Shown: piece by piece, positions 44,608-64,000 of the stretch | How positions within the stretch are numbered: position 1 is the stretch's first letter | Layout of the letters: the number at the start of each line of letters is the position of its first letter | Virus record (IMG/VR): IMGVR_UViG_3300042868_005339 | DNA from: a virus | DNA length: 64,000 nucleotides | Reading direction: 5' to 3' (one strand) | Notes under the pieces: model-generated | The model's database searches: none | What the model saw: the letters and a program-made list of their open reading frames with translations, nothing else | Told to the model about the DNA's origin: nothing | Program-made: the position numbers and the translations under genes

Positions 44608-45687
44608 ATGACCACCGAAGCCCCCGACATCTTTTCTAAACGGCTTCGTCAAGCGCGAGCGATGAAGGGTTTAGCCCTGAGAGGATTAGCAGATGCGATT
44701 GGCGGAGCGGTCTCTCACACTGCTCTTGCCAAATATGAAGCAGGTCAGATGCAGCCAGACTCCACTGTTTTGATCAAGCTCTGTGACGCACTGGATCAGG
44801 TGCCTGATTATTTCTTCCGCCCATTCACCATCACCCTCCAGGATGTTCGATTCAGGAAGAAGGCTTCACTTGGTGTGAAGGCTGAGCAGGCGGTTCGGGA
44901 GCGAGCCATGGAGTATTTTGAGCGCTACCATGAGATCGAACAAATTGTGGATGCCCCCAGCAAGTTCCCTGGCCGGTTATCAGGGCCTAGCATCAAGACT
45001 CCTGAAGCCGCTGAAAAGATGGCGGATGAACTGCGCAAGGAATGGAAGCTCGGACGAGATCCACTGCCGAATGTGATCGAGCTGATCGAGTCACATGGCA
45101 TCAAGGTGTTTGAACTAGCAAATGCTGACCAGGATTTTGACGGATTCTCTGCTGAGACTGAGGCTGGCCCTGTCATCGTGCTGGCTGACTGGCTGAATGT
45201 GAACCTGCTGAGGAAGCGCATGACTGCCGTTCATGAGCTGGCGCATCTTGTCTTGCCTCTCGCCAAGAACCTTTCCGAGAAGGAGGAGGAAGACATTGTG
45301 AAACGTTTCGCGGGTGCATTGCTCTTGCCCAAGGAGAGCTTTGAGCAGACTTTTGGAAAGCACCGGACCAGTTTGAGCCTGGGGGAGCTGATCGAGATGA
45401 AGGCTAATTTTGGTGCCTCCATCTGGGCCATCATGATGAGAGCACGACAGCTAGGACTCATCGGCGAACAGGTGTTCTTGCGCTTCTGCCGGGAGGCGAA
45501 TGCTTGGCGTGCTCAAAAACGTGAACCTGGTGATGACCTGTATCGTGGAAACGAGAGCCACTCCCGATTCAAACAACTGGTTCATCGTGCGGTCGCCGAG
45601 GAATGCATCAGCGCATCGAAAGCTTCAAGCTTGCTCGGGCAGACCATTGGTGAGTTCCGAAAAGAGTTCCGGGAGGTGTTTTCCTGA
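44608..45687 (+). CDS. XRE HTH fused to ImmA/IrrE (COG2856) zinc metallopeptidase
   Basis: N-terminal LRQARAMKGLALRGLADAIGGAVSHTALAKYEAG and central HExxH AVHELAHLVL. Confidence 0.8.
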   Translation: MTTEAPDIFSKRLRQARAMKGLALRGLADAIGGAVSHTALAKYEAGQMQPDSTVLIKLCDALDQVPDYFFRPFTITLQDVRFRKKASLGVKAEQAVRERAMEYFERYHEIEQIVDAPSKFPGRLSGPSIKTPEAAEKMADELRKEWKLGRDPLPNVIELIESHGIKVFELANADQDFDGFSAETEAGPVIVLADWLNVNLLRKRMTAVHELAHLVLPLAKNLSEKEEEDIVKRFAGALLLPKESFEQTFGKHRTSLSLGELIEMKANFGASIWAIMMRARQLGLIGEQVFLRFCREANAWRAQKREPGDDLYRGNESHSRFKQLVHRAVAEECISASKASSLLGQTIGEFRKEFREVFS

Positions 45688-46482: not shown

Positions 46483-49400
46483 TTAGCTTGCTGGTGTGTA
46501 GCCTCTATAGACCTTCTTTAGCACCCTGTCGCGCACGTCGTCAGCTTTGTCCAACAGGAATGCTTTGGCGCGTTCTGTGGGCATCTGGAGCGCACGCTGG
46601 CCGTAGCGTAGGAGCATCTGCTTGTAACCCTTTCCTGTTTCGAGGCTGTAGTTGTCAGCTTCTTCTTGCGTGAGGGAGCGACGACGAGCGCCTTTGCCAA
46701 CCATGCGGTGTTCGGCATTAGCAGGAGTCAGCCAGATTCCACGGGAAATGAGAGCGCCGAGAACCTTGTAAGCTGGATCAGTTGGTTTCACCATGAACTC
46801 GCGGCTTCCAGGATACACATTGCGTTGGATTTGCTGGCCCAAGATGTCGTAGTACTCCTTGCCTTCGTAGCGACGATAAACAGGAATGTGTGAGGCTGTC
46901 TTCTCCCACAGTGTTTCGTATTTACGCAGATTTGGATCTTGCGCGTAGTCGATGTCCTTCAGGAATCGAGGAACGAAACCGCCAGCGTAGCTCGACATCA
47001 CCTTGGCAAAACGCTCCATGCGCTTCTCGTTGGGGTCTTTACTGGACAAGCTGTTGCCGAATAGCTCTTGGAACTGAGAAAGAGCAGGAATATCAGCGGC
47101 AGCAGCAGCACCAGACATTGCGGCACTTGCCATAATTTGAACCACGTTTTTGTCGTTCCATTGGTCTGGTGAGAAGCGGATTAGATCAGCCAAGCTACCA
47201 ATAGCTGCAAGCGCAGATGAAATGGGCCAGTTAGCATAACTAAATACTGTGTCATTGTATCCAATGGTGTACTCCTTCTCGCCAGCGGCTAGCTTTTGCT
47301 GCTTCTTTTCCGGTGTAAGGTTTCCCCATCCTCCGTTGATAAACAAGCCGCCTCGTTTTTCGTCATCTGGTTCTTCTGCAATAGCTTTAAGTAAGTAGTA
47401 GCCACCAACGGATAGTATCACTCCAACAAGCTGATTGCGTTGAATTGAGTCAATGAATGCTTCTTTTCCAATGATGCGATCAGGATCAAATTCAGCCTCG
47501 AATGCACGAGCGAAACCAATGCCCGGAATGAAGCTCAGACCTTGGTTGAATTTGTTTCCAGCGAAGCGTGCGAAGCGAACACCACCAAAGTTGGCTACAT
47601 TATATGCAGAGAACTGCATAAGATAGGCGAATGCCAACTCAAGTCCAGAAAGAATCCTATCGCCATTCTGTGCTGAGTCACTCCATCCGCGTTGAGCTTG
47701 CTTTAGGAATCTATCAGAACCAGCTTCAGCATTGGTCACAAGCGATCTGATCGCACGATAGCCGACACCTCCAAGTCCAGACGGTTCAAGCGTCATGGCA
47801 CCTTGCATTGCCATTTGGTTAGCGTTCTCAGACACTTTGCCAAACTTATCCAATTCCTTCATCATGTCTGCCAAAGCGTAGGAATCCACGATTGCCTTAT
47901 CATGCAATGATTTTGGAGGTGTGCCACCGAAGTCTTTCTGAATAATGGCATCCTTGTAAGGCTTCAGGTCCGATTTCTTCTCAAGTGCTGCGATCTTTTC
48001 TGGATCGAGTCCAATTTGTCGGAATACGATGGAAAGCGAGCCTTCCTTGGTTAGTCCGCCATTGAACACGTCAAGAGCTTTCAGCAAACGGCTAACAGTC
48101 CGCATAAACAAGCCTGCGCTCTTAACGAGAATCTTATCAGACTTCGCCATTTGCTCTGCTAATTGGTTACTCTTGCCGATATTTGCCCACTGCATGTTCT
48201 CAGTCACATCATTCATGGATGGATCAAGAAACACTGGATCACCCGTCACAAGGTATTGCCAAGCGATGTTGGCTTGACGACCAAAAGCACTCAATAATCG
48301 AGCTAACGTCTTGTATGCGCCAGCAAGCTCAGATGGAAGCTGCTTTGGATTGGTAAATCCAGAGATGAACACGCGAGACAATGCCGTGGAAAGCTCGAAT
48401 GCACCGCTGGCAACAGCCAAGCCGATTGAGACGATAGTATTTGGACCAGAGAGCACACTGGAAACCCAGAAGTCAGCGATCATCTTTACCACTGGAATCT
48501 TGAGTTCGCCTTGCAACACCTCAAGTAGCTTGTAAGCAGCAACTTGGCGCTTCACAGCGTTCAAACCTTCGTCTTGAAGAACCTCGATAAGCGAATTTAT
48601 CTTCTCACGCTCCGTCTCGGTGAACTCGGACTTGATGCCAAATTTCTCAGCTATGATCTTCGCGATTTCATCGTTGTCGAAGATGCCAAGGTTGATGTCC
48701 TCAACGATACGCATGCGATTTTCCTGAAGAGCTTTAGCAGCTTTTTTGCTGAGATTACCCTTTGCCTCTTGCTCACGGATCAATCGCTCCTGCATGCTGT
48801 CGAGAATGCGTTTACGCTTGGATTCCCATGCTTCCGCGAACAAGTCTGCGAGACGTGCTTTTTGCTCTGGCGTTGCGTTCTTGAGTTCTTCGTTGGCAGA
48901 GATGGCGTCAAAGATACGCTGGCGGTATTCTTCGACTGTCTTTGCGCTTTGCGAGAGGAGCTGACGCCAAGGGATAGGCGTCCTAAGAGGAATTTCCTCG
49001 CCACGGCGCATGTTGTTGATCTCGTTGATCATTCGTTGCAGGGCTTTGGGGCCTTGCAGAATGTTGAATGCAGCCATTGCTTCGAGATCAGTCTTTTCGC
49101 GTTCAGCAGTCTTGAATAGGCGTTCAGCCACATCAGGTGAAACATCCAATTTAGCGAGGCGTTCAGCAAACTTTGATTTCTCAACTGGATCAGAAACTTG
49201 ATCCTTGAAAGCCTTGTTAATGGAGTCACCAGACGTTGATTTGGATAGGTCTTTGGAACCTTGGCGCAACCTTTCCTCAGTAGAGTAAATAAGTCTGGAT
49301 GCTTGTTTGTCGGCAATCTCAACTCGGCGCTTCTCGATTTTGAATTTCTTCATTCGAGCCAAGTCGGAACGCTCTCTGGATGCGGTTAGGAATAAGCGTT

Positions 49401-52400
49401 CAGAAACCTCTTCACCAACCTTGAGCGCGCCCAGTCGTTCTGCGAATTGCTCAAATGATACAGGGTTTTTAACCTGATCTCTAAATGCTCGAATGATGGA
49501 GTCTTTTTGCTCCTTTTTTGACATGCCTTCAGGTGGATTCTTGAATCCTTGGCGATACAATTCCTCAAAGCGATAAACAATTTGAGATGCCTTGTTTTCG
49601 GCAATCTCAATTTCGTTGGCGATCTCTTCTGCTGTTGGCTCAATAGGTTGACCTTCTGCAACACGTTTCTCCACCGTGTCGATGATCTCCTTGCGCTTCT
49701 TGCGTTTTTTCTTCTCTGTTGGCGTATCGGTTGGTGATTCCTCTCCAAGCAACTTGCCCATAATGGAGCGAAATTCAGCCAAGTCTTTTGCCTCTGCCGC
49801 ATCCGCTTCCTCATCCGACATTTGCAGAATGGCGTTAAGCTCGCTTCGCTCTGCATCTGTCATGGATGCCTTGGCATTTGCTACCTTCATATCCTTGCGA
49901 CGTTTGTAGAAAGCAAATCTACGAACCAGCATCTTTGCCCTTTCCCACAAGGTCTTATCTGCACCTTCAAATACCTGTTCACCTTCTTTGATTAATGCCC
50001 ACTCATTATTGTTGACGACATCCTGAGCTATCTCATCCACCGCCTGCTGATTGGCCTTATCAGAATTCTCATACGAGTTCTGCGTGAGGCTAGTCGCATT
50101 CTCGCTTCCGAAGTTGGAAATAAGGATATTTGTTCTTGCCTCCTTCATCACCTTCTCTGCGATTTCACGAATGAACATCCAGCTATAACGAGCTTTGTTC
50201 ACAAGATAGCGTCGTTGCCCAAGGTGTTGACCTTTCTTGCTACCCACGCCTTGCCAGAATGCAGATAGGCGCTCGCTAAGTTTGGATAGTTGCTTCTTTC
50301 TATCTGGAGACTTCGCCTCGCGTGCAGCGTTGTCCACACGTTGACGAACTTCGATAGTGAGGGCGTCTTGGGCCATCAAGTCTTGCTCAATGCCGATGCT
50401 TTCAAGGAATGCCGGGGAGATGACTGAGTTGGCAATATCATCAAGCGAAACGCCTTCATTCTCAAGGTTGTTGACGTATTTGATGGCATTATCGCTGTAT
50501 TCTTCAGAAGATTTGATCTCGCGGTCAATTGGCTTGAAGTTTGTGAACTGAACACCTCCAAACGGAGCCTTAGTTGTGCCACTGTTGATGTCCTTAATAT
50601 TCTTCGCGAACTGCTTGGTTGCAGCGTCTTCAGGATCAATCATAGATGCCCTTGCGCCAGTCTGCTGATAAGCCATCGCCAGCATCATTTCAGTCTCGTT
50701 GATACGATTCTTGAGAATATCGCCAAACTCGCCAGCCTTTGCAGGAGCGATGGCATCACGAATCTTTTGTAGCATTTTCATCACGCGCTCAATGAAGCGG
50801 CGGAATAGCGATGCTTCCGAAACTGTTTGGTGCATGTCTTGCTGAATCATCTGGCGCACAAACTCGGACATCACTATGCTGATGTTGCCATTTGGAGATG
50901 AAAATAGCTCATCAATGTCACTTGGAGTTGCGCCTGCACCGTAAAGTTGGCGAGATGCTTGAATCGCATCAAAAAGTATCCGTGTTGCTTTTACTGGATC
51001 ATTGCTTGATGCCACAACCTCCCTCATTTCGTCCAACATGGATTTATCGCTGTCGATGGCAAATTCAGTAAACGGCTTACGCCTTCCGCTGGCAATCCAT
51101 GCCTCACGTTGAACTGCAAGATCAGCCGCATGAATCAGTTCCTCTACCAAAGCATTGCCAATAGTTTCAAAAGCACTCGCCTCATCTAGGCCGAAGCTGA
51201 TTCCAGCCATCCGCTCACTAAGTTGTGCGGCATTGATGAGGATGGTTGTGGCCCCATTTTCATCCGCCATAACAGCCAGTCCACCTCCGATGTCGTTAGA
51301 AACTTCCTGAACTCTTGCTCCAATTCTGGACGCAATTTGAGCATAATCGGCAAAAGTGTAGCCACCACTTGCCATTCCCATGTCAGGTCTGGCCCCGGCT
51401 TTCCCTTCGCGATTTTCCCCTCTTCCTGCAATTGCCTCACGATTTCTAGAAACTTCTGATTCGACTCTTTGTGCTTGTGGTATGACTCCCTGTACTCCTT
51501 CTGGAAGGCCATCGAAGAGTGGTGTCCCGCTATCAGTCTGTCCAGCCCGGCCAACTCCAGAACCTTGTCGTAAACCTCCACCAAGTCCGGCCTTTTTGCC
51601 GGTGTAATTATCCATATTGGCTTCACCAGAGCGGTCCAATTGAATTGGTAAAGGGATTCGCCCTCCATTGGATATAAAATCCCTGAGTCGAGTAAGTACT
51701 GTATCATATAATTCTTGGTTGATTCCTCCAGATGGAGCCGGATTCGCAGCAGACATACCACGAAGCATGGAAATGACATCATCCTTAGTCATGTCGGTAG
51801 GCGGCATGATAATCGCAGAGCCAGCGCGTTCGCCTTCGGTGGTGAATGTAGCAAATGGAGACTCACCTTCAATCAACAGCGCCCCACTGTCCTCATACAG
51901 CCCTTGCAGGATGCGGCTGAACTCGGTTTCCGTCAGATCAGGCATCGACTGCTTCACGATGCTGAAAAGCTCGTCTAGCGGCACCGATGGACCATTTGTC
52001 TTCGGAGCAATATCGTATGCTGCGCGAATAGTAGAACGCACTTCCTTGTCGCGTTCGTCGTAGTCAGTGTTGCGAGCTACTTCAGCGCCACTGTTGAATG
52101 CGGCATCATTAGGGGAGTCGTATTCGACTTTGGATGCCATTGGCTGTGAGGCAGATTCCAACTCGTTCATTAGCGCGTTAACTTCGCTAATCTCGTCTTG
52201 TAAACGCTTGCCAACTTGGCCGTTTTTAGCCATTGTAAGAGCGGTTTTAAGAGCATTCGTAATATCAGTCAGCAATGCCTTCATCGCCTCAACAAAGCGC
52301 ATCCATCCAGTCTCGGTGGTGAAGTCTTGACGCTTAAATTGAAGTAACTGCCTGCCAACTTCCATAGCAAAAGCTGGTGCGTTTTTAGACTGTGCTAAAC

Positions 52401-55400
52401 TTTGAAGAATTACCTGAATGTCATTTGTTGGTGACTGTGGATTATAAATATTCCACGCGGTAACAATAACATTAGCCGCTTTTACATCGCCATTTTTCAA
52501 GCCATCAGCAGCAGCTTGATACATCTCAGAAAGCATTTCTGTGTATTGCTTTACTTCAAAATCTTCAAACTCGCCAACTGATCCATTATCCTGCCACAGC
52601 TTGTATGTATTAAGATGTTGAGCGGTGTGAATGATCTCCTCCTGAGCCACATCATATATGAAGGCAAAGGCGGTTGTTGCGTCTGAGTTTTGCAACTGAA
52701 CTAAACCTCTAGTGTCGAATCGCACTTCAATTGAGGGATTAGCTCCCGCAATGAATAAACTAGCTGGTCTGCCTTCATTTGTCCTTTTGTTGGTAATGCG
52801 AACAGGAAGTAACGTGGCATCGAAGGAATAACGCGACGAAATGGCCTCAAGTCCAAAGTCTTCCATAGCCTTCGCCCTCTGAGTTGGCGAAAGCTCATTC
52901 CAGTTTGACTCTGAAACAGCTTTTCGTATTGCCTGCGCTCTTGGAGAGTTGTCTCCTGTCGAAACTCCCTCCATGCGCTGGCTACCATATCCCTCGGATG
53001 CGTAAGGACGAACTGATGTATCATAAGTTTCATATTTGGTTTTTCCACCATTCACCAGAATATCGGCATTCACCTTCTCCGAGTTCTTCAAGCTATTGCG
53101 AATCAAGCGTAAAACGTCCTTGTAGTCCTTCAGCGTAGGCTCGCTCGTCTTGCCAGTGATCTTCTGCCAGATGCCACGCAGGAATTGCATGAACTCTGCC
53201 AAAATGCCATCACGCGGGATTTCAACCATCGAGTCGAAGTCGCGAGTCATCGCTTCTTCAAGGATGCTGAAGTAGCTCACCTGATTCGTGCGCCAATCAG
53301 AGTATTCGCTGTAGGATTCAGCAAGCGAATCAAGCTCCTGTGGAGAGTACATCCGGCGCAGGAACGAGAAAATCTGCATCTTCTCCTTCATCGACAAGAA
53401 GAACATGCCTTTGTGGATATTCTCATGAAGAATAACGCGACGAACCGCCGCTACTTCTGGCGTAGTGCCTTGAAGATTGGCTAGCTTGCGATCAAGATCG
53501 GATACACCTACGTTGTCCGTGAAGACAATCGGCTGTCCATTTTCAGACATGCCTTCGATTTTTGAGTTGGCGCTTACTGCTGCCCAAGTCTCAGGATAGC
53601 GAACGCGATTAGCTGGATCAGCAAGGAAGTCCTTAGATGTGCCAATCCAGGTGAATAGCACATTTGGAATCTCGCCTGAACGATTGAGAATCGCGACAGC
53701 TTGATTGGCATCGGTTGGATTAACGGTGCCTTGAACGACGTTCGTGCGTGTTTTCTGAATGAGCGAGTTGAGCGTCTTGAGGTTTAGCTCATCGCGCTTC
53801 TTTTGTGCGGCTTCCGCCTTGGCCTGCTCCTTCTCGTCACGCTCGATTTCTTTGGCGAGCTTGGCATCGGCTGCATCACGCTTAGCTTGAGCTTCTGACG
53901 CTTCCTTATCAGCTTTGAGATAGGCTTGAACAATCGGACGAGAGCCAACGAGTTTGGGAAATGCAGCACGAAGCACATCCATGTCTTTGCCACCGCTAGC
54001 GAAGTAGGCTTTTGCGGCAGCGATCTTTTCTGGACTCCATTGCCTTTTGCTCTCGATCAAATCCTCTTCCAAGAACGCCATTGCGGCATCTGCAATGTCC
54101 GCTTTTTCGTTTGACTCTATGGCAGTTGTAGCAGATTCTTGCTCAAAAGCAGGGATCGACCCCTCTGCTGGTTGTTGAACAACACTGGCTACCGCCGCTT
54201 CCTTAGCCAAGGGAGCGGCGGTTTCTGTTGGTGTGGCTACCGTTGTGGTTTGGGGGGATTCTTGAGTGGAATTGTCTTTAGTCCATGCCGCAAAGTCGTG
54301 CTCAGTCTTTGTTACTTTGAAAATGCTATCGCCATCGCCTTTTTCGAGAACGAAATCATTGCCTCTCTTTTTTGGAATGTAGCCATCCTGCACCATTTGG
54401 GATACCACATCTGCCTTGGTACCAGAGTATATTTTCCCTGCCGACTGACTACGGCGTGAAGCTGGTTGAGACAATACGCTTACAGCTTTTTCAGCAGACA
54501 CACCCTTCATTCCTAAGTCTTGAGCGAACTTTCTAGGAACCTCTTCTTGAGAGGCTTTCTTCTCGGCTTCCTGTCGCTCCTTATTCTTGAGGTCTTCGAT
54601 AGATTTTGCGCGAGATTGAGAATTTTTACGTTCAATCTCTCCAGCTTTCAATGCTTCCTCTTCCGTATCAAAAAGGTAGTCTCCAAATCCGCGTTTATTG
54701 GAAGTCTGAACTGCCCACTGTGGCTGATTGTTAAGTTTAGTCTGGTAAACAGAACCAATGCCTACCTCTTGGCCTTTTTCTGCACCACTATCTTTGGTGG
54801 TGGATGCTGCGGGTTCGGCGGCTTGTACGCTGCCTGAAGGAGTATCTTGAATTGGGGGCGCTTCATTAGTCGGCTGGAAAACGTAGAGGTCGCCTTGCTT
54901 GACGTAGCCTTGTGGAAGTTTGATGCCGTAGGTGTCAACGGCGGCGGCGGAGACTGGTTTGCTGTCACTGGTGGCTAGTAATATAAGGTGTTGATGAGTA
55001 ATGCCAGCGCCCCACTTGCCCTTTGAAATCTGAGCCACCTCATACATGTCCGACAGTGGAACATTATACTTGTCTGTAATATTCCTGAATGCATCTCGAT
55101 CCTTGCGAGAATCAACCCAACTATTCAGGCTTTCTTGGGCGGCATCGCGAGTCTTTTGAACATTGATCGTTACGTCGTTTGCCTTTTTTGGGAGTGTTAA
55201 AGCCTCCTCCGGCGTCATCTGCTCCGGCTTCGTCACATCCCGCTCAATGGCGCTGCCTCCCGGCATGACCGTGCCTTCGGTAGCGGGCGTCGGCGTCCCT
55301 TGCGGGGTGATTGGTGGAGCTACTTCTTCTTGGATTTGACCTTCTGCGGCAACTTCTTGAGGCTGGGCGTTTCCTTCACCCAGTCCTTGCAGTTCCATTT

Positions 55401-57081
55401 CGGGTCTTTCTTGGCGTAGCAAGCCTTCATCTGTGATTTGCTCTTGAATGGCATCTGGCGCTGTTTCTATGGGTTGAGGTTGAATCGCCTCACCCACCCC
55501 TGCACCTGCTTGCACAGTTGGGGGCAGCACAGACATTTCAGGCGCGATTTCGCCATTGGAGTCAGTGATCGTTTGTGAGAGATTTTCAGGCATCTCCATT
55601 GCTGGAGAAGGTGTTACTGCTGGAAGCTCAATTGCAGGCGCTACCTGTGGCTGCGGAGTATTAACCACGCCTTGAATGATATTGCGGGCTGCTGTCGTCG
55701 CCTGAGATACATCGGAAGACGTGTTTTCAGCCGTTGTGACGATGCTATCAGCGGTGTTTACTGCGGCAGTTAGGCCGGGTGAAATAGCAGGCTGTCCAAG
55801 TTGCGATAAACCACGAATGTTTTGCCGAGAAAATGGAAGCTCTGTTGAGCGAATATCTTCGCGGTTGAAAGGCAACTGCGTAGGACGAATATCTTCACGG
55901 GTAAACGGAAGTTCGGAAGCTCTAATGTCTTCGCGATTGAATGGCAGATCGGTTGCTCGAATATCCTCACGGTTGAATGGAAGCGTTGTGACTACTCCAT
56001 CTGTTGGCGCAGGTGCTGTGGTCGGTTCTTCTGGAACAATTTCAGTTTCAACAACCTGCTGCTCAGCCTGAGGGCGCAAGGCGCGATACCCACGATTAAT
56101 AGCTGTTGGTCCAAGTCCAGCCAGGCCCGTCAATCCAGTCATTGCTAGAGTTGTTGGGGCAACGTTTGTGATCCCTTGGGTATAATCCTGCACCGTCCTA
56201 TCTGGCAAAACAACACTCTCAGGTGCTTCACCTCGAAGAACGCTTTGCTTAAATTCTTTGTTGATACGATCCTGCTCAACTGCGGTAATCGCTTCTGTGC
56301 CAACTTCACCAGCAGCAGCGCCGACACCAGCTCCCACCGCTTTAGCTCCAGTAACCTTGGATAGGGCATTGGAGGCGAGGCTCATGATGCCATTCTTACC
56401 GCCGAGAGCTTTACGAATGTATTTTCCAGCGCCTCCAAGGGCCATGTTGCCGAGAGCTTCTGGGCCAGCTTCGGCAGCGCCAAATTTGCGGGCCAATGGG
56501 AGCAATTCTTCGTATGCCTCATTTTGCTCTTCTGGAGTCAGCGGACGTTGCAGCTTCTCTTGGAAGAAATTGTCGATTCTTTCGCGGGAATCATCAAGAA
56601 ATTGAGCGCCAGCCATGCGATAGGCCATCAAAAGCGATGTTCCTGCTGCTGCCGAACGTGCTGCCGCTGGACTCTTAGTAGCAAGAGCGGTTACTGCCCC
56701 TGCCGCAAGGCTTGGAACCAGTGTTGATCCAGAAAATCCAAGGCTTGGAGTCGCTTCTCGAATTGAGGATGAAACCGATGATGCATCACCTCCTGCCATA
56801 GCGGCAGCTTCGGAAGCATTAAGCTCTTCCTGAAGAGCCCGCATGTCTGCCCGACTTTGCGCGTAGCCCTCACTGCGCTGCCAAGGGTTTTCTAATCCTC
56901 CAAACGCCTGACGCATTGAAGCTGGAACGCTCGTTCCAAGAGAGGTAAAAGCCCTTCCAGTGGCAGAAAGAGTGTCAGACAGGTCGAAAAACGGCTTCTC
57001 CTCGACTTTTGGATACTTGTTCAGCCAAGATTCCTGATTAACTTTGGGATATTTTGTGAGCCAGTCTGTTTCAGAAGCCAT
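46483..57081 (-). CDS. Giant 3,532-aa multi-module protein (probable virion-internal/ejected protein)
   Basis: Uninterrupted ORF among virion-type genes. It has hydrophobic Ala/Gly segments at the N-terminus, tandem repeats, three (H/E)ExxH modules and a C-terminal ~900 aa with several TM-like segments. Confidence 0.85.
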   Translation of the reverse strand: MASETDWLTKYPKVNQESWLNKYPKVEEKPFFDLSDTLSATGRAFTSLGTSVPASMRQAFGGLENPWQRSEGYAQSRADMRALQEELNASEAAAMAGGDASSVSSSIREATPSLGFSGSTLVPSLAAGAVTALATKSPAAARSAAAGTSLLMAYRMAGAQFLDDSRERIDNFFQEKLQRPLTPEEQNEAYEELLPLARKFGAAEAGPEALGNMALGGAGKYIRKALGGKNGIMSLASNALSKVTGAKAVGAGVGAAAGEVGTEAITAVEQDRINKEFKQSVLRGEAPESVVLPDRTVQDYTQGITNVAPTTLAMTGLTGLAGLGPTAINRGYRALRPQAEQQVVETEIVPEEPTTAPAPTDGVVTTLPFNREDIRATDLPFNREDIRASELPFTREDIRPTQLPFNREDIRSTELPFSRQNIRGLSQLGQPAISPGLTAAVNTADSIVTTAENTSSDVSQATTAARNIIQGVVNTPQPQVAPAIELPAVTPSPAMEMPENLSQTITDSNGEIAPEMSVLPPTVQAGAGVGEAIQPQPIETAPDAIQEQITDEGLLRQERPEMELQGLGEGNAQPQEVAAEGQIQEEVAPPITPQGTPTPATEGTVMPGGSAIERDVTKPEQMTPEEALTLPKKANDVTINVQKTRDAAQESLNSWVDSRKDRDAFRNITDKYNVPLSDMYEVAQISKGKWGAGITHQHLILLATSDSKPVSAAAVDTYGIKLPQGYVKQGDLYVFQPTNEAPPIQDTPSGSVQAAEPAASTTKDSGAEKGQEVGIGSVYQTKLNNQPQWAVQTSNKRGFGDYLFDTEEEALKAGEIERKNSQSRAKSIEDLKNKERQEAEKKASQEEVPRKFAQDLGMKGVSAEKAVSVLSQPASRRSQSAGKIYSGTKADVVSQMVQDGYIPKKRGNDFVLEKGDGDSIFKVTKTEHDFAAWTKDNSTQESPQTTTVATPTETAAPLAKEAAVASVVQQPAEGSIPAFEQESATTAIESNEKADIADAAMAFLEEDLIESKRQWSPEKIAAAKAYFASGGKDMDVLRAAFPKLVGSRPIVQAYLKADKEASEAQAKRDAADAKLAKEIERDEKEQAKAEAAQKKRDELNLKTLNSLIQKTRTNVVQGTVNPTDANQAVAILNRSGEIPNVLFTWIGTSKDFLADPANRVRYPETWAAVSANSKIEGMSENGQPIVFTDNVGVSDLDRKLANLQGTTPEVAAVRRVILHENIHKGMFFLSMKEKMQIFSFLRRMYSPQELDSLAESYSEYSDWRTNQVSYFSILEEAMTRDFDSMVEIPRDGILAEFMQFLRGIWQKITGKTSEPTLKDYKDVLRLIRNSLKNSEKVNADILVNGGKTKYETYDTSVRPYASEGYGSQRMEGVSTGDNSPRAQAIRKAVSESNWNELSPTQRAKAMEDFGLEAISSRYSFDATLLPVRITNKRTNEGRPASLFIAGANPSIEVRFDTRGLVQLQNSDATTAFAFIYDVAQEEIIHTAQHLNTYKLWQDNGSVGEFEDFEVKQYTEMLSEMYQAAADGLKNGDVKAANVIVTAWNIYNPQSPTNDIQVILQSLAQSKNAPAFAMEVGRQLLQFKRQDFTTETGWMRFVEAMKALLTDITNALKTALTMAKNGQVGKRLQDEISEVNALMNELESASQPMASKVEYDSPNDAAFNSGAEVARNTDYDERDKEVRSTIRAAYDIAPKTNGPSVPLDELFSIVKQSMPDLTETEFSRILQGLYEDSGALLIEGESPFATFTTEGERAGSAIIMPPTDMTKDDVISMLRGMSAANPAPSGGINQELYDTVLTRLRDFISNGGRIPLPIQLDRSGEANMDNYTGKKAGLGGGLRQGSGVGRAGQTDSGTPLFDGLPEGVQGVIPQAQRVESEVSRNREAIAGRGENREGKAGARPDMGMASGGYTFADYAQIASRIGARVQEVSNDIGGGLAVMADENGATTILINAAQLSERMAGISFGLDEASAFETIGNALVEELIHAADLAVQREAWIASGRRKPFTEFAIDSDKSMLDEMREVVASSNDPVKATRILFDAIQASRQLYGAGATPSDIDELFSSPNGNISIVMSEFVRQMIQQDMHQTVSEASLFRRFIERVMKMLQKIRDAIAPAKAGEFGDILKNRINETEMMLAMAYQQTGARASMIDPEDAATKQFAKNIKDINSGTTKAPFGGVQFTNFKPIDREIKSSEEYSDNAIKYVNNLENEGVSLDDIANSVISPAFLESIGIEQDLMAQDALTIEVRQRVDNAAREAKSPDRKKQLSKLSERLSAFWQGVGSKKGQHLGQRRYLVNKARYSWMFIREIAEKVMKEARTNILISNFGSENATSLTQNSYENSDKANQQAVDEIAQDVVNNNEWALIKEGEQVFEGADKTLWERAKMLVRRFAFYKRRKDMKVANAKASMTDAERSELNAILQMSDEEADAAEAKDLAEFRSIMGKLLGEESPTDTPTEKKKRKKRKEIIDTVEKRVAEGQPIEPTAEEIANEIEIAENKASQIVYRFEELYRQGFKNPPEGMSKKEQKDSIIRAFRDQVKNPVSFEQFAERLGALKVGEEVSERLFLTASRERSDLARMKKFKIEKRRVEIADKQASRLIYSTEERLRQGSKDLSKSTSGDSINKAFKDQVSDPVEKSKFAERLAKLDVSPDVAERLFKTAEREKTDLEAMAAFNILQGPKALQRMINEINNMRRGEEIPLRTPIPWRQLLSQSAKTVEEYRQRIFDAISANEELKNATPEQKARLADLFAEAWESKRKRILDSMQERLIREQEAKGNLSKKAAKALQENRMRIVEDINLGIFDNDEIAKIIAEKFGIKSEFTETEREKINSLIEVLQDEGLNAVKRQVAAYKLLEVLQGELKIPVVKMIADFWVSSVLSGPNTIVSIGLAVASGAFELSTALSRVFISGFTNPKQLPSELAGAYKTLARLLSAFGRQANIAWQYLVTGDPVFLDPSMNDVTENMQWANIGKSNQLAEQMAKSDKILVKSAGLFMRTVSRLLKALDVFNGGLTKEGSLSIVFRQIGLDPEKIAALEKKSDLKPYKDAIIQKDFGGTPPKSLHDKAIVDSYALADMMKELDKFGKVSENANQMAMQGAMTLEPSGLGGVGYRAIRSLVTNAEAGSDRFLKQAQRGWSDSAQNGDRILSGLELAFAYLMQFSAYNVANFGGVRFARFAGNKFNQGLSFIPGIGFARAFEAEFDPDRIIGKEAFIDSIQRNQLVGVILSVGGYYLLKAIAEEPDDEKRGGLFINGGWGNLTPEKKQQKLAAGEKEYTIGYNDTVFSYANWPISSALAAIGSLADLIRFSPDQWNDKNVVQIMASAAMSGAAAAADIPALSQFQELFGNSLSSKDPNEKRMERFAKVMSSYAGGFVPRFLKDIDYAQDPNLRKYETLWEKTASHIPVYRRYEGKEYYDILGQQIQRNVYPGSREFMVKPTDPAYKVLGALISRGIWLTPANAEHRMVGKGARRRSLTQEEADNYSLETGKGYKQMLLRYGQRALQMPTERAKAFLLDKADDVRDRVLKKVYRGYTPAS
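55804..55983 (-). repeat. 5 x 36-nt in-frame tandem repeat (LPFNREDIRxxx)
   Basis: LPFNREDIRATD / LPFNREDIRASE / LPFTREDIRPTQ / LPFNREDIRSTE / LPFSRQNIRGLS. Confidence 0.9.
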
Positions 57082-59779: not shown

Positions 59780-60745
59780 TTATCGAGTTTGTGGAGTTTG
59801 TCCGGCTGAGAAAGACCAATCCATTGCCATTTTAGGACGGATAGCTCCTCGGTTTTGTTTCAGCCCTTGGTTAAGAACTTCGTAGCACTTCTGCCAGAAA
59901 AGCTGTGACTGTTGAAGCTCTGTAGCTCCACTGTCTTCAAGCTGAATCGCCTTCATTGCGAATTTCAGCGCACCAATGTTGTCGGGCCAGATCAAATCAG
60001 TCTCTTGAATGAGTCGAACAAAACGACGCTTACAAAGGCATCGAAGCACTGGCTTATTGTCTGGACTAGCCTCGATTGTGCCAACCTTGTAACGACGATA
60101 AATAGGATTCGTTTCACTTGGCTCATAGACGGAAAGCTCAGTCGGAGTGCCAGAAACAACGACTGACAGCGTGACGTTGCCGGTAGTGAGTGGCTTGACT
60201 ACCTGCGTCACGAACATTTGCACAGCAGTGGTTGCCGTTGGATTGGCGAGCGTTAGTTCAATACCTTCTACACCGTTAGCATCGAAAATGGTGTTGCCGT
60301 TTGCGTCGTGACCGTAGATTCGCACAACTTGACCAACATCGTTTGCGTCAGCGATAGTGAGGCGGATGAATCCAGCGTCAGCTTGATACTCCTGCGTGCA
60401 AACATCGCCTTGATCCAAGATGATGCGAAGATCTCTCGTCGTCTCGTCAATGTAGCCAGGTCCAGAAGTCATGAACTCCTGCATGCGCGAGAATGGCATC
60501 GTGGGCCAGTTGACGCGAGTGACGCCAACAATGGACTCGTAGCGCCTTGGAAGAGTGATGTAGCCAGTGGTGGAAGGATAATCCACTTGGCCGTACATAT
60601 TCTTCCACAAACCAGAGTTGATGATCCTCTCGACTCCCTGATTGAGAATCGGTAGGAAAAGCTCTGAATTAGGATTGCCAGGGAAGATGGCATTGCCAAT
60701 CATTGACCTGACATCCGCAACTGTTAGGCCGGTGGACATCTCCAC
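59780..60745 (-). CDS. Hypothetical virion-type protein
   Basis: 321-aa ORF, the first gene of the tightly spaced run leading to the giant gene. Confidence 0.6.
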   Translation of the reverse strand: MEMSTGLTVADVRSMIGNAIFPGNPNSELFLPILNQGVERIINSGLWKNMYGQVDYPSTTGYITLPRRYESIVGVTRVNWPTMPFSRMQEFMTSGPGYIDETTRDLRIILDQGDVCTQEYQADAGFIRLTIADANDVGQVVRIYGHDANGNTIFDANGVEGIELTLANPTATTAVQMFVTQVVKPLTTGNVTLSVVVSGTPTELSVYEPSETNPIYRRYKVGTIEASPDNKPVLRCLCKRRFVRLIQETDLIWPDNIGALKFAMKAIQLEDSGATELQQSQLFWQKCYEVLNQGLKQNRGAIRPKMAMDWSFSAGQTPQTR

Positions 60746-60851
60746 CGATTCTAACCGTTATGGCTGGATGGGCAAGAGGGATTTTGGCGGATTTGTTGGC
60801 AGCGTAAACTTCGATTTATTCCACATAAAATAGTTGTGGACAGATTTATAT

Positions 60852-60868
60852 GTTGTTGTAACAACAAC
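60852..60868. promoter_or_regulatory. Palindrome GTTGTTG-TAA-CAACAAC
   Basis: It ends 2 nt before the HNH ATG, in the divergent gap. Confidence 0.35.
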
Positions 60869-60870
60869 CT

Positions 60871-61374
60871 ATGGAAATAACACACAACACGCTTCGTTTA
60901 TTTTGGACTCGCAATCTTGTCGGACACAAGCCAGATCAATCAAAACCGTATTATGCAGGTCTTGATGCTTGTTGGCTTTGGTCTGGAAGTTTAGCTCCAG
61001 ACGGATATGGAAAAACCAAAGTTGGCAATGAGTGTCTATCTGCACACAGGCTATCGTGGATCATTCATAATGGCGACATACCAACTGGGAAAATAGTAAT
61101 GCACCTATGCGACAATCGAGCATGTGTAAATCCTGCTCATCTCAAACTTGGAACTACTCAGGAGAATACAGCCGACTCAGTGCAAAAAGGTCGCAGAAAT
61201 CCGGCTATTGGTAAGCAACTGCCACAATCCAAGTTGAACGAGACGAGTGTTTTGGCAATTCGTGATGCGGCTAGACGTGGAATACCACAGGCTCAAATAG
61301 CGCAAACTTTTGGCCTATGCCAACAAACTATTCACCAAGTTGTTACTCGTAAAACGTGGAAGCACGTTGCTTAA
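60871..61374 (+). CDS. HNH homing endonuclease with C-terminal HTH
   Basis: CWLWSG..DGYG, AHRLSW, HLCDNRACVNPAHLKLGTTQEN and ...IHQVVTRKTWKHVA. It runs opposite to all neighbouring genes. Confidence 0.85.
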   Translation: MEITHNTLRLFWTRNLVGHKPDQSKPYYAGLDACWLWSGSLAPDGYGKTKVGNECLSAHRLSWIIHNGDIPTGKIVMHLCDNRACVNPAHLKLGTTQENTADSVQKGRRNPAIGKQLPQSKLNETSVLAIRDAARRGIPQAQIAQTFGLCQQTIHQVVTRKTWKHVA

Positions 61375-62294
61375 ATCAGTTTTTCTAGCCACCTATCAAA
61401 CTCAGAACAAGATCTTGTTTCTGTTCCTTTGTATGGAAGAAAGTGAGCGCCTAATATTGCCTCACAGTAACGCCTTTGCGCTGTTATGTCATTCACTGGA
61501 TTGCTCAAGAATTGAATGATTCGCGTAATATCTTCATGGCATTCAAAAACAGCACTACTTCCAGTGAATGCTCCAGTTCCAAGTACTGCCGTTGGAAGAC
61601 CAAGCAGACAAGCCTCGGATGCAGTTGTTGAATTAACCGTTATTACGGCTGAGCAATTTGGAAGCAGGCTTCGCATATCGCCATCCATTGACCATGTAAA
61701 CTTGTCTCTTGCTGGATGTTTTTCAAATAGACTGCGCTCTCTCGGATGAGGACGAATCAATAGGTTCGTATTCGCCGGAATCATATTAATTATTGAGTCA
61801 AGAACCCATTCAACACGATCACCTCGCGGAGCTATTGGGAACTCAAAATTGATGTTGCAGTCATTTCTGCACTGTAGAGCAAAAAGTATAGGTCCACTCT
61901 GATCACCGCCAGCAAATGCTTTGGCTCGTAAATGCTTTGATGCGAAATCTTCGCAATCCACATTGAATGATTGCATCCAATGTCTCTCTTTACATAAAGA
62001 AGACTGCGAGAAAAAACCTCTACTATCCACAAAACTTCCAGCCCGTTGTGCTAGAAGAGAGTTCTCCACATGCAGAACATTATTTCCGAACGATGAGGTC
62101 CATGAATGTGGCATTCGACATTGCCAAGTGATGATGTTTGGCGAAGTCTTGAATACCTCTTTATAGTTGGCTGTAGATTGAGTGACATTATGCCAAGTTA
62201 CCTCTGCTCCTTGATCTCTGCATTTGGAATCTACCCACGGTTTAATATCGGATTTCAGGACAATCTCAGTTACCAGAGCGGCCACTTGTTTCAT
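61371..62294 (-). CDS. Capsule_synth (KpsS/KpsC-like) glycosyltransferase family protein
   Basis: ILFALQCRNDCNI, LLIRPHPRE and VITVNSTTASEACLLGLPTAVLGTG. Confidence 0.6.
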   Translation of the reverse strand: MKQVAALVTEIVLKSDIKPWVDSKCRDQGAEVTWHNVTQSTANYKEVFKTSPNIITWQCRMPHSWTSSFGNNVLHVENSLLAQRAGSFVDSRGFFSQSSLCKERHWMQSFNVDCEDFASKHLRAKAFAGGDQSGPILFALQCRNDCNINFEFPIAPRGDRVEWVLDSIINMIPANTNLLIRPHPRERSLFEKHPARDKFTWSMDGDMRSLLPNCSAVITVNSTTASEACLLGLPTAVLGTGAFTGSSAVFECHEDITRIIQFLSNPVNDITAQRRYCEAILGAHFLPYKGTETRSCSEFDRWLEKLI

Positions 62295-63025
62295 TGCTTA
62301 ATAATACCAATAACCTCCCGCAACGCAAGTTCGTGATTATTCCATGCACCAATGATATGATGTATTGGAGAGCGTTTCTGTGATTCCATGCGAGCGTGAC
62401 ATCCTTGCTTATATGTCTGACCCGGTATGACACCAAGATCGTCACCCCAAAGAAGTATAAGAGGAACCTTCAATAGAATTGCTAAATGTGCTAAACCACT
62501 ATCTGTTGAGACAACAAAACGGGAGCCAAGCATGGCTGCTGCGATCTCATCTAAGTTTGTAACTAGTGTCAATCCGCAATCAGATGACATATCTTCTTTG
62601 CCAGCGGCGATAACACGCAAGCCAGCGTCAACAAGACCAGAAGTTAAGTAGGGCCATCCTTCCCAGTTTCGATGTGGAGAACTTGTCGCCTTACCCCTTG
62701 GAGCAACCAATACATCGCAAGAACTTTTATTGGCTGATATTGGAGTAACGTCTATATCAGTTTTTGCTGGTATTGACCAGCTTATCTTCACAAACTCAGC
62801 TTCTGGGAACTGGTTTTTTAACTCTCTTACCACAAGCCTCTCACCCCATCCGTTTAGGTCTTCTGATACATCCACAAAATCAGTCGCCGTTGGGTATAAA
62901 AATCTCCAAGCTACTGGGCAACAAACAGTCAATCTATCGCAGACAATAGATGCGACTCTCCGAACCTTGAAGCTAATCGTATCACCTAGTCTATATCGTT
63001 CAGGGATAACAATAATGTGCTTCAT
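62291..63025 (-). CDS. GT9 (heptosyltransferase-like) glycosyltransferase
   Basis: VVSTDSGLAHLAILLKVPLILLWG, and NWEGWPYL upstream. Confidence 0.65.
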   Translation of the reverse strand: MKHIIVIPERYRLGDTISFKVRRVASIVCDRLTVCCPVAWRFLYPTATDFVDVSEDLNGWGERLVVRELKNQFPEAEFVKISWSIPAKTDIDVTPISANKSSCDVLVAPRGKATSSPHRNWEGWPYLTSGLVDAGLRVIAAGKEDMSSDCGLTLVTNLDEIAAAMLGSRFVVSTDSGLAHLAILLKVPLILLWGDDLGVIPGQTYKQGCHARMESQKRSPIHHIIGAWNNHELALREVIGIIKQ

Positions 63026-63618
63026 GCCAATTCAATCAAGACTTGTTTCTCCTTTGTATTCCTAGCTAAAACGGAAAAATCTGCACCAGTTTTGTTAATC
63101 CAATCCAAAAATGCTTTGAACTCGTGATCTTCGTATCCATTGTAGTTATAAAACTCGTCAAAAAGCAGAAGAGGCTTTTCTGTCAAAATCAACTCACTCA
63201 AAGAGCACAAAATAGTTTGCGTTGAACTGCCTAAATCACAGTCAAAGTGAACAGCTTCTAGCCGTCTTGTAGTATCATGCGATACCGATAAGAAATTTGG
63301 CAGTGTTTCATTGAACAATCCTGGCACAATCTTGACGTTCTCTCGCCATTTGAGCTTACTAACGTCAGTTTTAAAATGTCCAACTGGATGCCCTGGAGTC
63401 CATTCTTCTGGAAGTCCATCAAATGAATCAAATCCAGTAAAAAGAGCATTCGGCCTAACTTCTGCCATGTAATTAATAGACCTGCCATTCCATACGCCAA
63501 ACTCAAATGCGTTACCATTGGTAATTCCAGTGAGGTATCTGTGCCATATTTCGCCACGCGTTTTGCATTTCATAGGAGCCGCCATAACACGGGCGCGTAG
63601 TTCGTAAAATGTTATCAT
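63022..63618 (-). CDS. TylF/MycF-type SAM-dependent O-methyltransferase
   Basis: [31 protein letters not shown] and LLLFDEF. Confidence 0.7.
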
Positions 63619-64000
63619 GGAGACGGAGATGGACTCGGAGACGGACTTGGCGTAGGCGTAGGTGTCGGGCTAGGAGACAGAGTTGGACATGGAGTTGGGC
63701 ATGGAGACGGACAAGGTGACGGAGAAGGTGACGGAGAAGGACTTGGACTTGGAGAAGGACTTGGACTTGGAGAAGGACTTGGACTTGGAGAAGGACTTGG
63801 ACTTGGAGAGGGGGAAGGAGATGGTGTTGGGGATGGACTCGGCGTAGGCGTAGGCGTAGGCGTAGGCGTAGGCGTAGGCGTAGGCGTAGGTGTAGGCGAC
63901 GGAGATGGTGTTGGTATCGGTGGCGGGGTTCCAGGACCAATGTAACTTACAGATCCAGTAAAAAAACCTGGAGTGCCATCCTTAAATTTTCCAAATATCT
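63615..64000 (-). CDS. 3' end of a protein terminating in a ~100-aa Pro-Thr/Pro-Ser tail (5' end outside window)
   Basis: Hand translation of the frame with codon first bases at 2 mod 3 gives ...[35 protein letters not shown](TP)n...(SP)n...[10 protein letters not shown]...(SP)n*. The TGA overlaps the methyltransferase ATG. The track's LRLR ORF is the wrong frame. Confidence 0.6.
63733..63888 (-). repeat. Perfect micro/minisatellite arrays inside the PS/PT tail
   Basis: GGAGAAGGACTTGGACTT x4 (63733..63804) and GGCGTA x8 (63841..63888). Confidence 0.9.

Follow-up and report, generated by a model that had tools for sequence, protein, structure and literature searches.

Cases in which an enzyme gene adjoins the gene of its protein acceptor are known from bacteria. 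In the TibC/Aah systems, with TibA or AIDA-I as substrate, a GT-B enzyme related to GT9 attaches O-glycans in the cytoplasm to Ser residues of a protein rich in repeats, and its gene lies beside that of the substrate; TibC itself carries out O-heptosylation of protein Ser residues, and most GT9 enzymes act on LPS. The GspB/Fap1 serine-rich repeat loci and the flagellin glycosylation islands likewise place a repeat-rich Ser/Thr acceptor beside strain-variable cytoplasmic glycosyltransferases and sugar-modifying enzymes, the flagellin islands using ulosonic acids and methylated derivatives. To our knowledge, mycobacteriophages are the only phages for which experiments have shown glycosylation of the phage's own proteins; virion glycosylation was reportedly described there by Freeman et al. 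in Cell Host Microbe in 2023. Phage glycosyltransferases are said to glycosylate C-terminal extensions of the mycobacteriophages' own structural proteins (cited in PMC12619734), and the acceptors named there are capsid and tail-tube subunits.

The locus described here occupies one end of the window, by which we mean the whole stretch of DNA analysed (64,000 nt). We consider that this region probably serves an uncultured freshwater phage as a self-contained cassette for protein O-glycosylation. As in the mycobacteriophages, glycosyltransferases are phage-encoded. Here the candidate acceptor is a small dedicated carrier (or a large adhesin-like protein in other lineages), whose Ser/Thr-rich C-terminal extension, a long (PS/PT)n repeat, is coupled genetically to the enzymes and is exchanged with them as one cassette, and the enzyme families are different (β-Kdo-transferase-like, GT9-like and TylF-like); the system is known from sequence alone. 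With TibC/Aah it shares the gene of a GT9-related GT-B enzyme adjoining that of a repeat-rich candidate substrate, but TibC is a 406-aa iron-binding dodecamer modifying a β-helix passenger domain, whereas the phage enzyme has 244 aa with a reduced N-terminal domain and lies next to a Pro-Ser/Thr tail. The GspB/Fap1 and flagellin loci are similar in setting a repeat-rich Ser/Thr acceptor gene beside a variable set of glycan enzymes, although they belong to bacterial surface organelles and use other enzymes (GtfA/B, Maf), while in this phage locus the acceptor tail itself is swapped.

Features of the variable locus and its borders (positions in the window; aa, amino acids; MT, methyltransferase; GT, glycosyltransferase)
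Feature	Position	Strand	Evidence or remark
Conserved 321-aa flanking gene, outside the module	59780..60745	-	locus marker
Right edge of the variable cassette	60810..60870	.	blastn of the window vs L058 and L060
HNH homing endonuclease	60871..61374	+	HNH_3 8e-14, several PHROG HNH families
Capsule_synth-like (Caps-like) GT, related to retaining β-Kdo transferases, 307 aa	61371..62294	-	PF05159, AF2 + Foldseek, motifs
GT9-like GT-B glycosyltransferase, 244 aa, reduced N-terminal domain	62291..63025	-	PF01075, AF2 + Foldseek
TylF-like SAM-dependent O-MT, 198 aa	63022..63618	-	phrog_6608, motifs
(PS/PT)n tail, 104 codons + TGA	63615..63929	-	proposed O-glycan acceptor, 47 Ser/Thr
Carrier N-terminal domain, last 23 codons	63930..64000	-	rest, ~65 codons, past the window end

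The gene entering at the window edge ends, as the preliminary description had stated, in a Pro-Ser/Pro-Thr tail (52 P, 30 S, 17 T, 3 C, 1 I and 1 L) that runs to a TGA at 63617-63615 with no domain after it, and this is the sole Ser/Thr/Pro tract in the six frames of the whole 64-kb window. A complete carrier ORF of 175 aa is present in an IMG/VR relative (L005, 9477-10004), in which the 23 residues just before the tail are identical to those in the window; judging by this relative the carrier has about 175 aa, and the ORF upstream of the enzymes is not a large virion protein. The carrier frame enters at 63998 on the minus strand, 63999-64000 being two out-of-frame bases. Neither a signal peptide nor a transmembrane segment was found in the carrier or in any of the three enzymes. 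Since no homologues of known function were detected for the carrier or its neighbours (proteins of 281 and 321 aa), we only infer that it may be part of the virion, from the match of the gene two positions upstream to a PHROG tail-fibre family (4.5e-7) and from the adhesin-like build of the alternative carriers.

All 6 Ser, 4 Pro and 4 Thr codons are present in the tail, and its DNA contains perfect tandem repeats (an 18-nt unit x4.3 and a 6-nt unit x9.7). Relatives that are nearly identical have tails of different length, with 104 aa in the window and, by tract measure, ~98 in L002, ~98 in L005 and ~88 in L003. The repeats and the varying length would suit a tail that is an unmodified polyproline-II-like spacer or brush, changing in length by repeat slippage, while the enzymes glycosylate another phage target (capsid, fibre protein or small molecule); PS/PT linkers without known glycosylation do exist. 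A spacer normally joins two domains, however, and here nothing comes after the tail, while the use of all synonymous codons indicates selection on composition and not slippage alone. As this reading also fails to explain why tail and enzymes are replaced together and why their classes correlate (see below), we regard it as unlikely.

The tail and the three enzyme genes are coupled. The serial overlaps reported earlier can be read directly as three ATGA junctions: ccATGAta between the tail stop and the methyltransferase start, gcATGAag between the methyltransferase and GT9-like genes, and caATGAaa between the GT9-like and Caps-like genes. In L005 the same kind of coupling is seen for the two genes upstream. 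An excess of promoters or terminators was looked for and none was found.

The 307-aa protein matches PF05159 (Capsule_synth) at 43.7 bits (cut-off 20) over residues 136-245, and the best 21 Foldseek PDB matches of its AF2 model (pLDDT 95.2) were all WbbB or KpsC (E 1e-11 to 1e-7, TM-score ~0.5-0.57). Across 31 sequences of the family Q141 and D145 (QXXXD), P184, S222, T223 and E227 are invariant, H183 of the HP motif is kept in 29, and position 77, a candidate counterpart of the general-base Glu66 of KpsC, is always acidic (E in 22, D in 9); the QXXXD and HP residues align to the motifs of WbbB. The family resembles WbbB (GT99) and KpsC/KpsS (GT107) in its modified GT-B fold, the Asp of QXXXD, the His of HP, the S-T...E motif and an acidic residue in the N-domain, although it is only 12-18% identical to them. 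Overall, the similarity to solved enzymes is low (12-18% identity, TM-score ~0.55-0.6). All characterised Caps-like relatives, as far as we know, use glycolipid or glycan acceptors and not protein; the known enzymes modify the ends of glycolipids or O antigens. For the phage family, which is apparently phage-restricted, the proposed acceptor is a protein. Its members frequently occur fused with a methyltransferase or with a GT29-, GT2- or GT32-like domain. In retaining β-Kdo transferases the QXXXD Asp is the nucleophile and the HP His protonates CMP (PMC10148158).

The 244-aa protein matches PF01075 (Glyco_transf_9) at 29.3 bits (cut-off 22) over residues 139-195 only. The best 29 Foldseek matches of its AF2 model (pLDDT 90.6) were all GT9 enzymes (WaaC, WaaF, 3tov) or the protein heptosyltransferase TibC, which is among the top structural matches (E ~6e-6) and not significant at the sequence level (E = 1.8). 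Its STDSGLAHLA aligns with the nucleotide-sugar motif SVDTGLSHLT of WaaC. The protein lacks the two full Rossmann-like domains of GT9 (~320-350 aa), its N-terminal domain having ~100 aa and four strands (target-length TM-score 0.43-0.46), and it is not an RfaC/RfaF orthologue by NCBIfam scores (17-26 bits against cut-offs of 135-569). The 198-aa protein is matched by phrog_6608 'methyltransferase' at 4e-41 and falls below the Pfam cut-offs for Methyltransf_24 (24.6 vs 26.3) and TylF (20.5 vs 23); a PDB profile search retrieved sugar O-methyltransferases including CalS11 at only 0.003-0.004. EFGVWNGRS, GFDSFxGLPE and a third, 10-residue stretch, candidates for the SAM motif I, the DSFEGxP motif and the acidic metal-site motif of TylF/CmcI-type enzymes, are invariant or nearly so in 9 homologues, and in P0055 and P0057 the methyltransferase is fused to the Caps-like enzyme (4e-97, 5e-95). 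The original family names hold for Capsule_synth and GT9, as distant members above the Pfam cut-offs, while TylF stays below them. The guess of a heptose/Kdo-type glycan agrees with the modelled structures and with the intact β-Kdo-transferase motifs.

Given these relatives, the enzymes could instead remodel the host envelope during infection (an LPS inner core of Kdo and heptose, or a Kdo-linked capsule), for example blocking superinfection or aiding release, with the PS/PT protein as an unrelated neighbour. The nearest characterised relatives WaaC, WaaF, WbbB and KpsC are LPS or capsule enzymes, and a Kdo transferase with a heptosyltransferase is the pair that builds the LPS inner core. Distant Caps-like homologues (at most 36% identity: L022-L026, L043, L046-L051) have no adjoining tail; distant homologues are found in glycosyltransferase clusters lacking one, and L026 carries the enzyme pair within a larger cluster. 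Against this, no orthology links the enzymes to host LPS genes, and bacterial genomes contain practically none of them. The two glycosyltransferase families make up 28 and 39 clusters among 5.8 billion proteins, and a scan of one genome per species (185,579 species) retrieved only 2 contigs, both MAG-binned, for the two; from their sequence distribution both look phage-restricted.

The strongest support for the tail as acceptor comes from the comparison across related phages. Where the Caps-like enzyme is at least 40% identical, every informative locus carries a Ser/Thr/Pro tract on the same strand, directly ahead of the enzyme genes. In most of these loci, and also in L045 and L052 (~30% identity), the tract runs to a stop codon that precedes the first enzyme gene by 21 nt at most; it is internal in L021 and L011. 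This adjacency persists through several gene orders (tail-MT-GT9-Caps, tail-GT9-Caps, tail-GT9-Caps-MT, tail-MT-Caps and tail-Caps) and through carriers as different as the small ~175-aa type and an adhesin-like type of ~1000 aa that contains CBM5/12, Ig-like and DUF5122 domains. Adjacency among related phages is in part inherited synteny, so these lineages do not count as independent.

Within one locus, tail and enzymes are exchanged together. The hypervariable cassette covers ~60810-63929 of the window. In some sister phages a Thr/Ser-rich tail at the same locus is accompanied by a divergent Caps-like enzyme together with Methyltransf_11/23 and GT2 enzymes; in others the tail is Thr-rich and its partners are a GT2 enzyme and two unknown proteins; further lineages have GT2+MT, GT8, MT+GT29-like or FkbM-MT sets, each after its own tail type. 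Comparison of L002 with L058 by blastn places the breakpoint, with 92% DNA homology ending at the GPGTPP codons where the tail starts and resuming 63 nt before the 321-aa gene; in the window, homology with sisters carrying other cassettes (L058, L060) resumes at 60809, 64 nt upstream of that gene (blastn). The 321-aa gene is 95-99% identical in sister phages with different cassettes, and its product had no match in PHROG and PDB searches. Tail class tracks enzyme class across carriers: Pro-alternating tails go with CapsA or GT29-like enzymes and Thr/Ser-rich tails with GT2a or GT2c sets. Downstream of the two tail-less carrier variants (L065; L070/L083) no Pfam glycosyltransferase or methyltransferase was found.

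From these sequences, the tail is most likely the acceptor of the adjoining enzymes, because the two are adjacent, are exchanged jointly with a breakpoint at the first tail codons, and are missing together in the tail-less variants. The substrate-plus-enzymes module proposed in the preliminary description gains strong comparative support in this core; its suggested extension to a trio at 19.3-22.7 kb is not supported, for only the 197-aa product there is a methyltransferase, of generic class I type, and those of 348 and 566 aa show no glycosyltransferase signal. Remodelling of the host envelope leaves unexplained a cassette breakpoint at the first tail codon, a tail composition that changes with the enzyme set, an adjacency that survives changes of carrier and gene order, and tail-less variants without such genes, and we give it only a slight chance. 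That the adjacency is a historical accident, the repeat being a recombination hotspot that gathers morons and HNH endonucleases with no functional link, is highly improbable: repeats do favour illegitimate recombination, and several lineages have HNH genes within the variable block or next to it, but a hotspot would gather mixed cargo, whereas every tail-linked set has at least one glycosyl- or methyltransferase, some with unknown proteins as well (12 cassette types tabulated at the locus), and homology breaks on the upstream side of the tail rather than inside it, so that the tail travels with the enzymes. The HNH gene of the window, which is convergent with the Caps-like gene and overlaps it by 4 nt, is part of the variable block; it is missing from sister cassettes A2 and A3, and HNH genes also occur in cassettes of other lineages.

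The swapping of tail and enzymes as one block suggests that the phage glycosylates one of its own proteins, and a mechanism can be proposed on this basis. A small cytoplasmic carrier, with an N-terminal domain of ~88 aa that probably docks on a tail-fibre or appendage complex, would end in the disordered 104-residue tail and would be translated together with three soluble enzymes by termination-reinitiation at the ATGA overlaps. The tail Ser/Thr hydroxyls would then be decorated in the cytoplasm from host nucleotide sugars. The Caps-like enzyme would act as a retaining glycosyltransferase, with the QXXXD Asp as nucleophile and the His of HP contributing, most likely transferring a CMP-activated ulosonic acid, for instance Kdo. 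It is likely sufficient for initiation, being the constant component of this cassette type, in the sense that every cassette recovered by searching with it contains it, while sister cassettes A3, B1-B4 and C2-C5 do not. The GT9-like enzyme may add a second sugar, for which the family precedent is heptose, and the TylF-like enzyme would O-methylate the glycan; both the donor sugars and the order of reactions are inferred. Tail and enzymes would form one exchangeable unit, other combinations in sister phages giving a serotype-like diversity of the displayed glycan.

More tentatively, the locus may act as a phage 'glyco-serotype' switch in which the tail and its matching enzymes move as one cassette, here building an O-linked methylated glycan of Kdo type plus heptose on protein Ser/Thr, with what would be the first protein-acting member of the retaining β-Kdo transferase superfamily and a glycan that sets host range or escape from host or grazer recognition. 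If the glycosylation reading is correct, modification of own proteins extends to abundant uncultured freshwater phages, which probably infect Gram-negative hosts, fragments having been binned with genomes of Chitinophagaceae and Prosthecobacter. It would also mean that enzyme folds of LPS and capsule type have been recruited to protein acceptors, and that acceptor and enzymes form an exchangeable cassette differing between otherwise 95-99% identical phages, a pattern resembling O-antigen and flagellin glycan diversity and suggesting that the surface of the phage is under strong diversifying selection. With one small carrier, three enzymes and likely donors made by E. coli, the system would be compact, and it might find use in glyco-engineering of Ser/Thr-Pro tags.

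No sequence relatives of the phage were detectable among 50,697 phage genomes. The strand carrying the tail also carries a 602-aa ORF, a 3532-aa ORF and unannotated genes. The 602-aa ORF, which had no match in PHROG and Pfam searches, is a putative terminase large subunit, judged by its size, by where it lies and by a tblastn match (22%) to a gut-phage record that is unannotated; that the minus strand is the virion-gene strand, as first described, is plausible. Besides this putative terminase, the phage content of the contig includes a primase-helicase, a CHAP-domain protein (a probable endolysin), HNH genes and the two glycosyltransferase genes.

The tail-bearing frame that enters the window from its edge ends in a segment of which half the residues are Pro (52 of 104), the rest being 30 Ser, 17 Thr, three Cys, one Ile and one Leu, and its stop codon closes it directly, with no sequence after the tail. 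The features noted in the preliminary description, i.e. the PS/PT tail with nothing behind it, the TGA/ATG overlap and the coupled methyltransferase (MT), GT9-like and Caps-like genes on one strand, could each be seen in the sequence. The tail was the only Ser/Thr/Pro-rich tract detected when all frames of the 64-kb window were scanned. Its DNA consists in part of perfect tandem repeats; since its Ser residues are encoded by all six codons and its Pro and Thr residues by four each, its composition appears to have been selected rather than produced by slippage alone. A frameshifted fusion of tail and MT is ruled out by a stop 19 codons upstream of the MT ATG in the MT frame. Scans for promoters and terminators gave only background levels.

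Coordinates of the features discussed in the window (and, for the first, of its counterpart in a close relative)
Feature	Position	Strand	Remarks
Region between putative terminase/HNH genes and fibre-like gene	35-598	+	Corresponds to 7073-7630 in L002
HNH homing endonuclease gene	2095-2631	-	Further HNH gene
661-aa protein	6474-8459	-	Exonuclease-like N-terminus (phrog_284)
348-aa protein	19329-20375	-	Member of the trio at 19.3-22.7 kb
HTH_3 + Peptidase_M78 (IrrE-like) protein	44608-45687	+	
3532-aa ORF	46483-57081	-	
321-aa gene	59780-60745		Locus marker
HNH homing endonuclease gene	60871-61374	+	Inside cassette, convergent with Caps-like gene (4-nt overlap)
Caps-like gene, 307 aa	61371-62294	-	ATGA overlap with GT9-like gene
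GT9-like gene, 244 aa	62291-63025	-	ATGA overlap with TylF-like MT gene
TylF-like MT gene, 198 aa	63022-63618	-	ATG overlaps tail TGA (ccATGAta)
Tail-bearing frame	enters at 63998, TGA 63617-63615	-	23 pre-tail residues, then 104-residue tail

The exactly matching Logan contig from the source assembly ends 144 nt upstream of the MT, within the repeat, and an exact DNA search of IMG/VR for the upstream ORF gave no match. The whole carrier ORF was therefore taken from IMG/VR relatives with 98–99% identical MTs. The carrier is small, not a large structural protein. In the relative L005, which has the same pre-tail peptide as the window, it comprises 175 aa, of which ~88 form a domain ahead of the tail, and lacks a signal peptide. 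The carrier gene is ATGA-coupled to the conserved 281-aa gene, which is itself preceded by a variable gene of 195–280 aa matching a PHROG tail-fibre family (4.5e-7). A search with the carrier N-domain found no homologues, and the 281-aa and 321-aa neighbours had no match in PDB or PHROG.

With the conserved 321-aa gene that lies downstream as a marker, we fetched 41 related loci. What lies between the carrier gene and the marker differs among them, even where the markers are 95–99% identical.

Cassette types found between the carrier gene and the 321-aa marker gene
Group	Tail	Genes that follow
Marker 95-99% identical	PS/PT	TylF-MT, GT9-like, Caps-like, HNH gene (as in window)
Marker 95-99% identical	Thr/Ser-rich	Divergent Caps-like, Methyltransf_11/23 enzyme, GT2
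Marker 95-99% identical	Thr-rich	Two unknown proteins, GT2
Marker 95-99% identical	None (carrier 83-85 aa)	Genes without GT or MT signal
More distant	(PTTLP)n	GT2+MT fusion
More distant	Ser-rich	Unknown protein, TylF-like MT, GT2
More distant	Thr/Ser	GT2, MT, GT2
More distant	PS/PT	MT+GT29-like protein
More distant	(PDVSPT)n	GT8, MT+GT29-like
More distant	(TTTTEEP)n or (TTTTAPP)n	GT2-containing sets

Comparison of L002 and L058 located the breakpoint: their 92% DNA homology breaks off where the tail begins, at the GPGTPP codons, and restarts 63 nt short of the 321-aa gene. The exchanged block has its right-hand limit in the window at 60809, and together these limits indicate that tail and enzymes are swapped as one block (approximately window 60810–63929). 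Across carriers, the class of tail tracks the class of enzyme: CapsA or GT29-like enzymes accompany Pro-alternating tails, and the GT2a or GT2c sets accompany Thr/Ser-rich ones. By a rough count over samples that are not independent, a tail is present in 12 of the 12 cassette types with a glycosyltransferase (GT) or MT, and neither of the two tail-less types has a GT or MT.

In other lineages, PS/PT-type tails also precede an MT fused to a GT29 (sialyltransferase-motif) domain, as in L082 (2620–3714) and in the homologues from L090 and L092, and the protein P0071 joins Caps-like, MT and GT29-like domains in one chain. These cases suggest that Pro-alternating tails recurrently go together with CMP-ulosonic-acid chemistry. 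HNH genes lie in or beside the cassettes of other lineages as well (L076, L085, L090–L092), and such genes might promote cassette exchange.

The association was also examined by querying IMG/VR, JGI metagenomes, GTDB genomes and Logan/ENA contigs with the enzymes and scanning each locus for Ser/Thr/Pro tracts. At all informative loci with a Caps-like protein of at least 40% identity, such a tract lies immediately upstream of the enzymes on the same strand. It is internal in L021 and L011; at most of these loci, and also at L045 and L052 (~30% identity), it extends to its stop codon, at most 21 nt ahead of the first enzyme gene. Behind the tract the order may be MT-GT9-Caps, GT9-Caps, GT9-Caps-MT, MT-Caps or Caps alone, and the enzyme that accompanies the tail at every one of these loci is the Caps-like one. 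The carrier is either a small protein or one of ~1000 aa in which CBM5/12, Ig-like and DUF5122 propeller domains occur; the 281-aa protein showed no significant homology to the N-terminus of the large carriers (hhalign probability 0.9%). Distant Caps-like homologues (36% identity or less) were otherwise found with no adjoining tail, and in L026 the enzyme pair is embedded in a larger GT cluster. In L011 (5968–9066), a much larger, phage-like JGI contig of 121 kb, two proteins bearing mucin-like Thr/Pro-rich tracts (PTTTVAPTTTTAG repeats) are immediately followed by Caps-like, GT9-like and GT2 genes, an arrangement that places the tail-plus-enzymes theme outside the 60–70-kb phage group too.

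The Caps-like protein matches Pfam Capsule_synth at 43.7 bits (cut-off 20). Family alignments for this enzyme and the GT9-like one were built from a collection of 5.8 billion proteins, where they number only 39 and 28 clusters respectively, and structures were then predicted. The best 21 PDB matches of the Caps-like model (pLDDT 95.2) are all retaining beta-Kdo transferases of the WbbB (GT99) or KpsC (GT107) type, and its profile aligns to WbbB across the catalytic region. Q141 and D145 of the QXXXD motif are invariant, as are P184 of the HP motif (H183 is present in 29 of 31 sequences) and the S222-T223...E227 motif, and position 77 is acidic in every sequence. In the characterized enzymes a covalent Kdo adduct forms on the QXXXD Asp, which serves as nucleophile, and the His protonates the CMP leaving group (PMC10148158). 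At the profile level the family is wider (119 representatives at E ≤ 1e-30), and its members are often fused to MTs or to GT29-, GT2- or GT32-like domains; fusions to the GT9-like enzyme could not be confirmed, its profile matching none of the long Caps-like proteins. Bacterial genomes (one per species, 185,579 species) nearly lack the family: the sole matches are two short MAG-binned contigs, L031 and L032, from a Chitinophagaceae MAG of Lake Mendota (99% identity) and from a Prosthecobacter MAG (46%), which give weak and conflicting hints of the host.

The GT9-like protein reaches 29.3 bits against Pfam Glyco_transf_9 (cut-off 22), over a stretch of only 57 residues, and scores far under the RfaC and RfaF equivalog cut-offs. 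Its model (pLDDT 90.6) has a reduced N-terminal domain, and the best 29 PDB matches are all GT9 heptosyltransferases (WaaC, WaaF, 3tov) or TibC, an enzyme that heptosylates protein Ser residues. An invariant Cys pair (C35, C36) and two invariant His (His210, His223) in this family may form a metal site recalling the TibC iron site. The third enzyme matches PHROG 6608 'methyltransferase' (4e-41), Pfam Methyltransf_24 and TylF remaining under threshold; it retains motif I, GFDSFxGLPE and a further 10-residue motif, and its profile weakly matches sugar O-methyltransferases such as CalS11. In the metagenomic proteins P0055 and P0057 such an MT is fused at the C-terminus of a Caps-like enzyme, which argues for a shared pathway. 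No transmembrane segment was predicted in any of the three enzymes, and no sugar-nucleotide synthesis genes were found among the window ORFs scanned.

Block exchange of the tail with the enzymes, and their adjacency, support the earlier proposal of a substrate-plus-enzymes module for the four genes, and we consider the region to be, probably, an O-glycosylation cassette. The tail would be glycosylated in the cytoplasm by co-translated soluble enzymes drawing on host nucleotide sugars. The Caps-like protein would probably serve as initiating or core transferase, with a CMP-ulosonic acid as donor; a second sugar would come from the GT9-like enzyme, and the MT would cap the glycan. Which donors are used, in what order the enzymes act and that the carrier sits in the virion are what we infer. 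That the enzymes act on some other target, the tail being an unmodified spacer, seems unlikely. Remodelling of host LPS or capsule agrees with the ancestry of the enzymes but fits neither the breakpoint, nor the co-variation of tail and enzymes, nor the tail-less variants, and we hold it to be quite improbable. A recombination hotspot gathering accessory genes is a very improbable explanation.

An O-glycosylation cassette of this kind would follow the same concept as mycobacteriophage virion glycosylation as cited in PMC12619734, and also resembles TibC-TibA, serine-rich-repeat glycoprotein loci and flagellin glycosylation islands. It differs from these systems in its enzyme families, in having a dedicated carrier and in that acceptor and enzymes are exchanged together, as a single cassette. 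A further difference is the phage lineage: neither a sequence relative nor a related cultured phage was found among 50,697 phage genomes.

Membership of the trio at 19.3–22.7 kb in the module, also proposed earlier, did not hold up, as these genes include a single generic Methyltransf_11 protein and the other two (348 and 566 aa) have no GT signal. The 348-aa protein has a weak, non-significant likeness to GH5 endoglucanases (E = 0.014, ~58 residues), which, if real, would make it a glycan-degrading and not a glycan-building enzyme.

Elsewhere in the window, the 3532-aa ORF has no Pfam domain above noise and is preceded by conserved genes of 566, 205, 119 and 321 aa; its homologues in related phages run off the locus ends at a size of at least 1895 and at least 2507 aa. 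Its product may be a giant protein that belongs to the virion or is ejected. A LAGLIDADG_3 match at residues 412–461 of the 661-aa protein could stem from an intein or from a homing endonuclease fused to it. The HTH_3 and Peptidase_M78 domains form an architecture typical of prophage regulatory switches, a hint that its life cycle may be other than strictly lytic. Finally, the window is circularly permuted relative to the IMG/VR contigs, and it has a second variable spot, flanked by the putative terminase/HNH genes and by the fibre-like gene: the window phage carries ThyX and an opposite-strand 235-aa gene there, and L002, a close relative, has an HNH-like gene.
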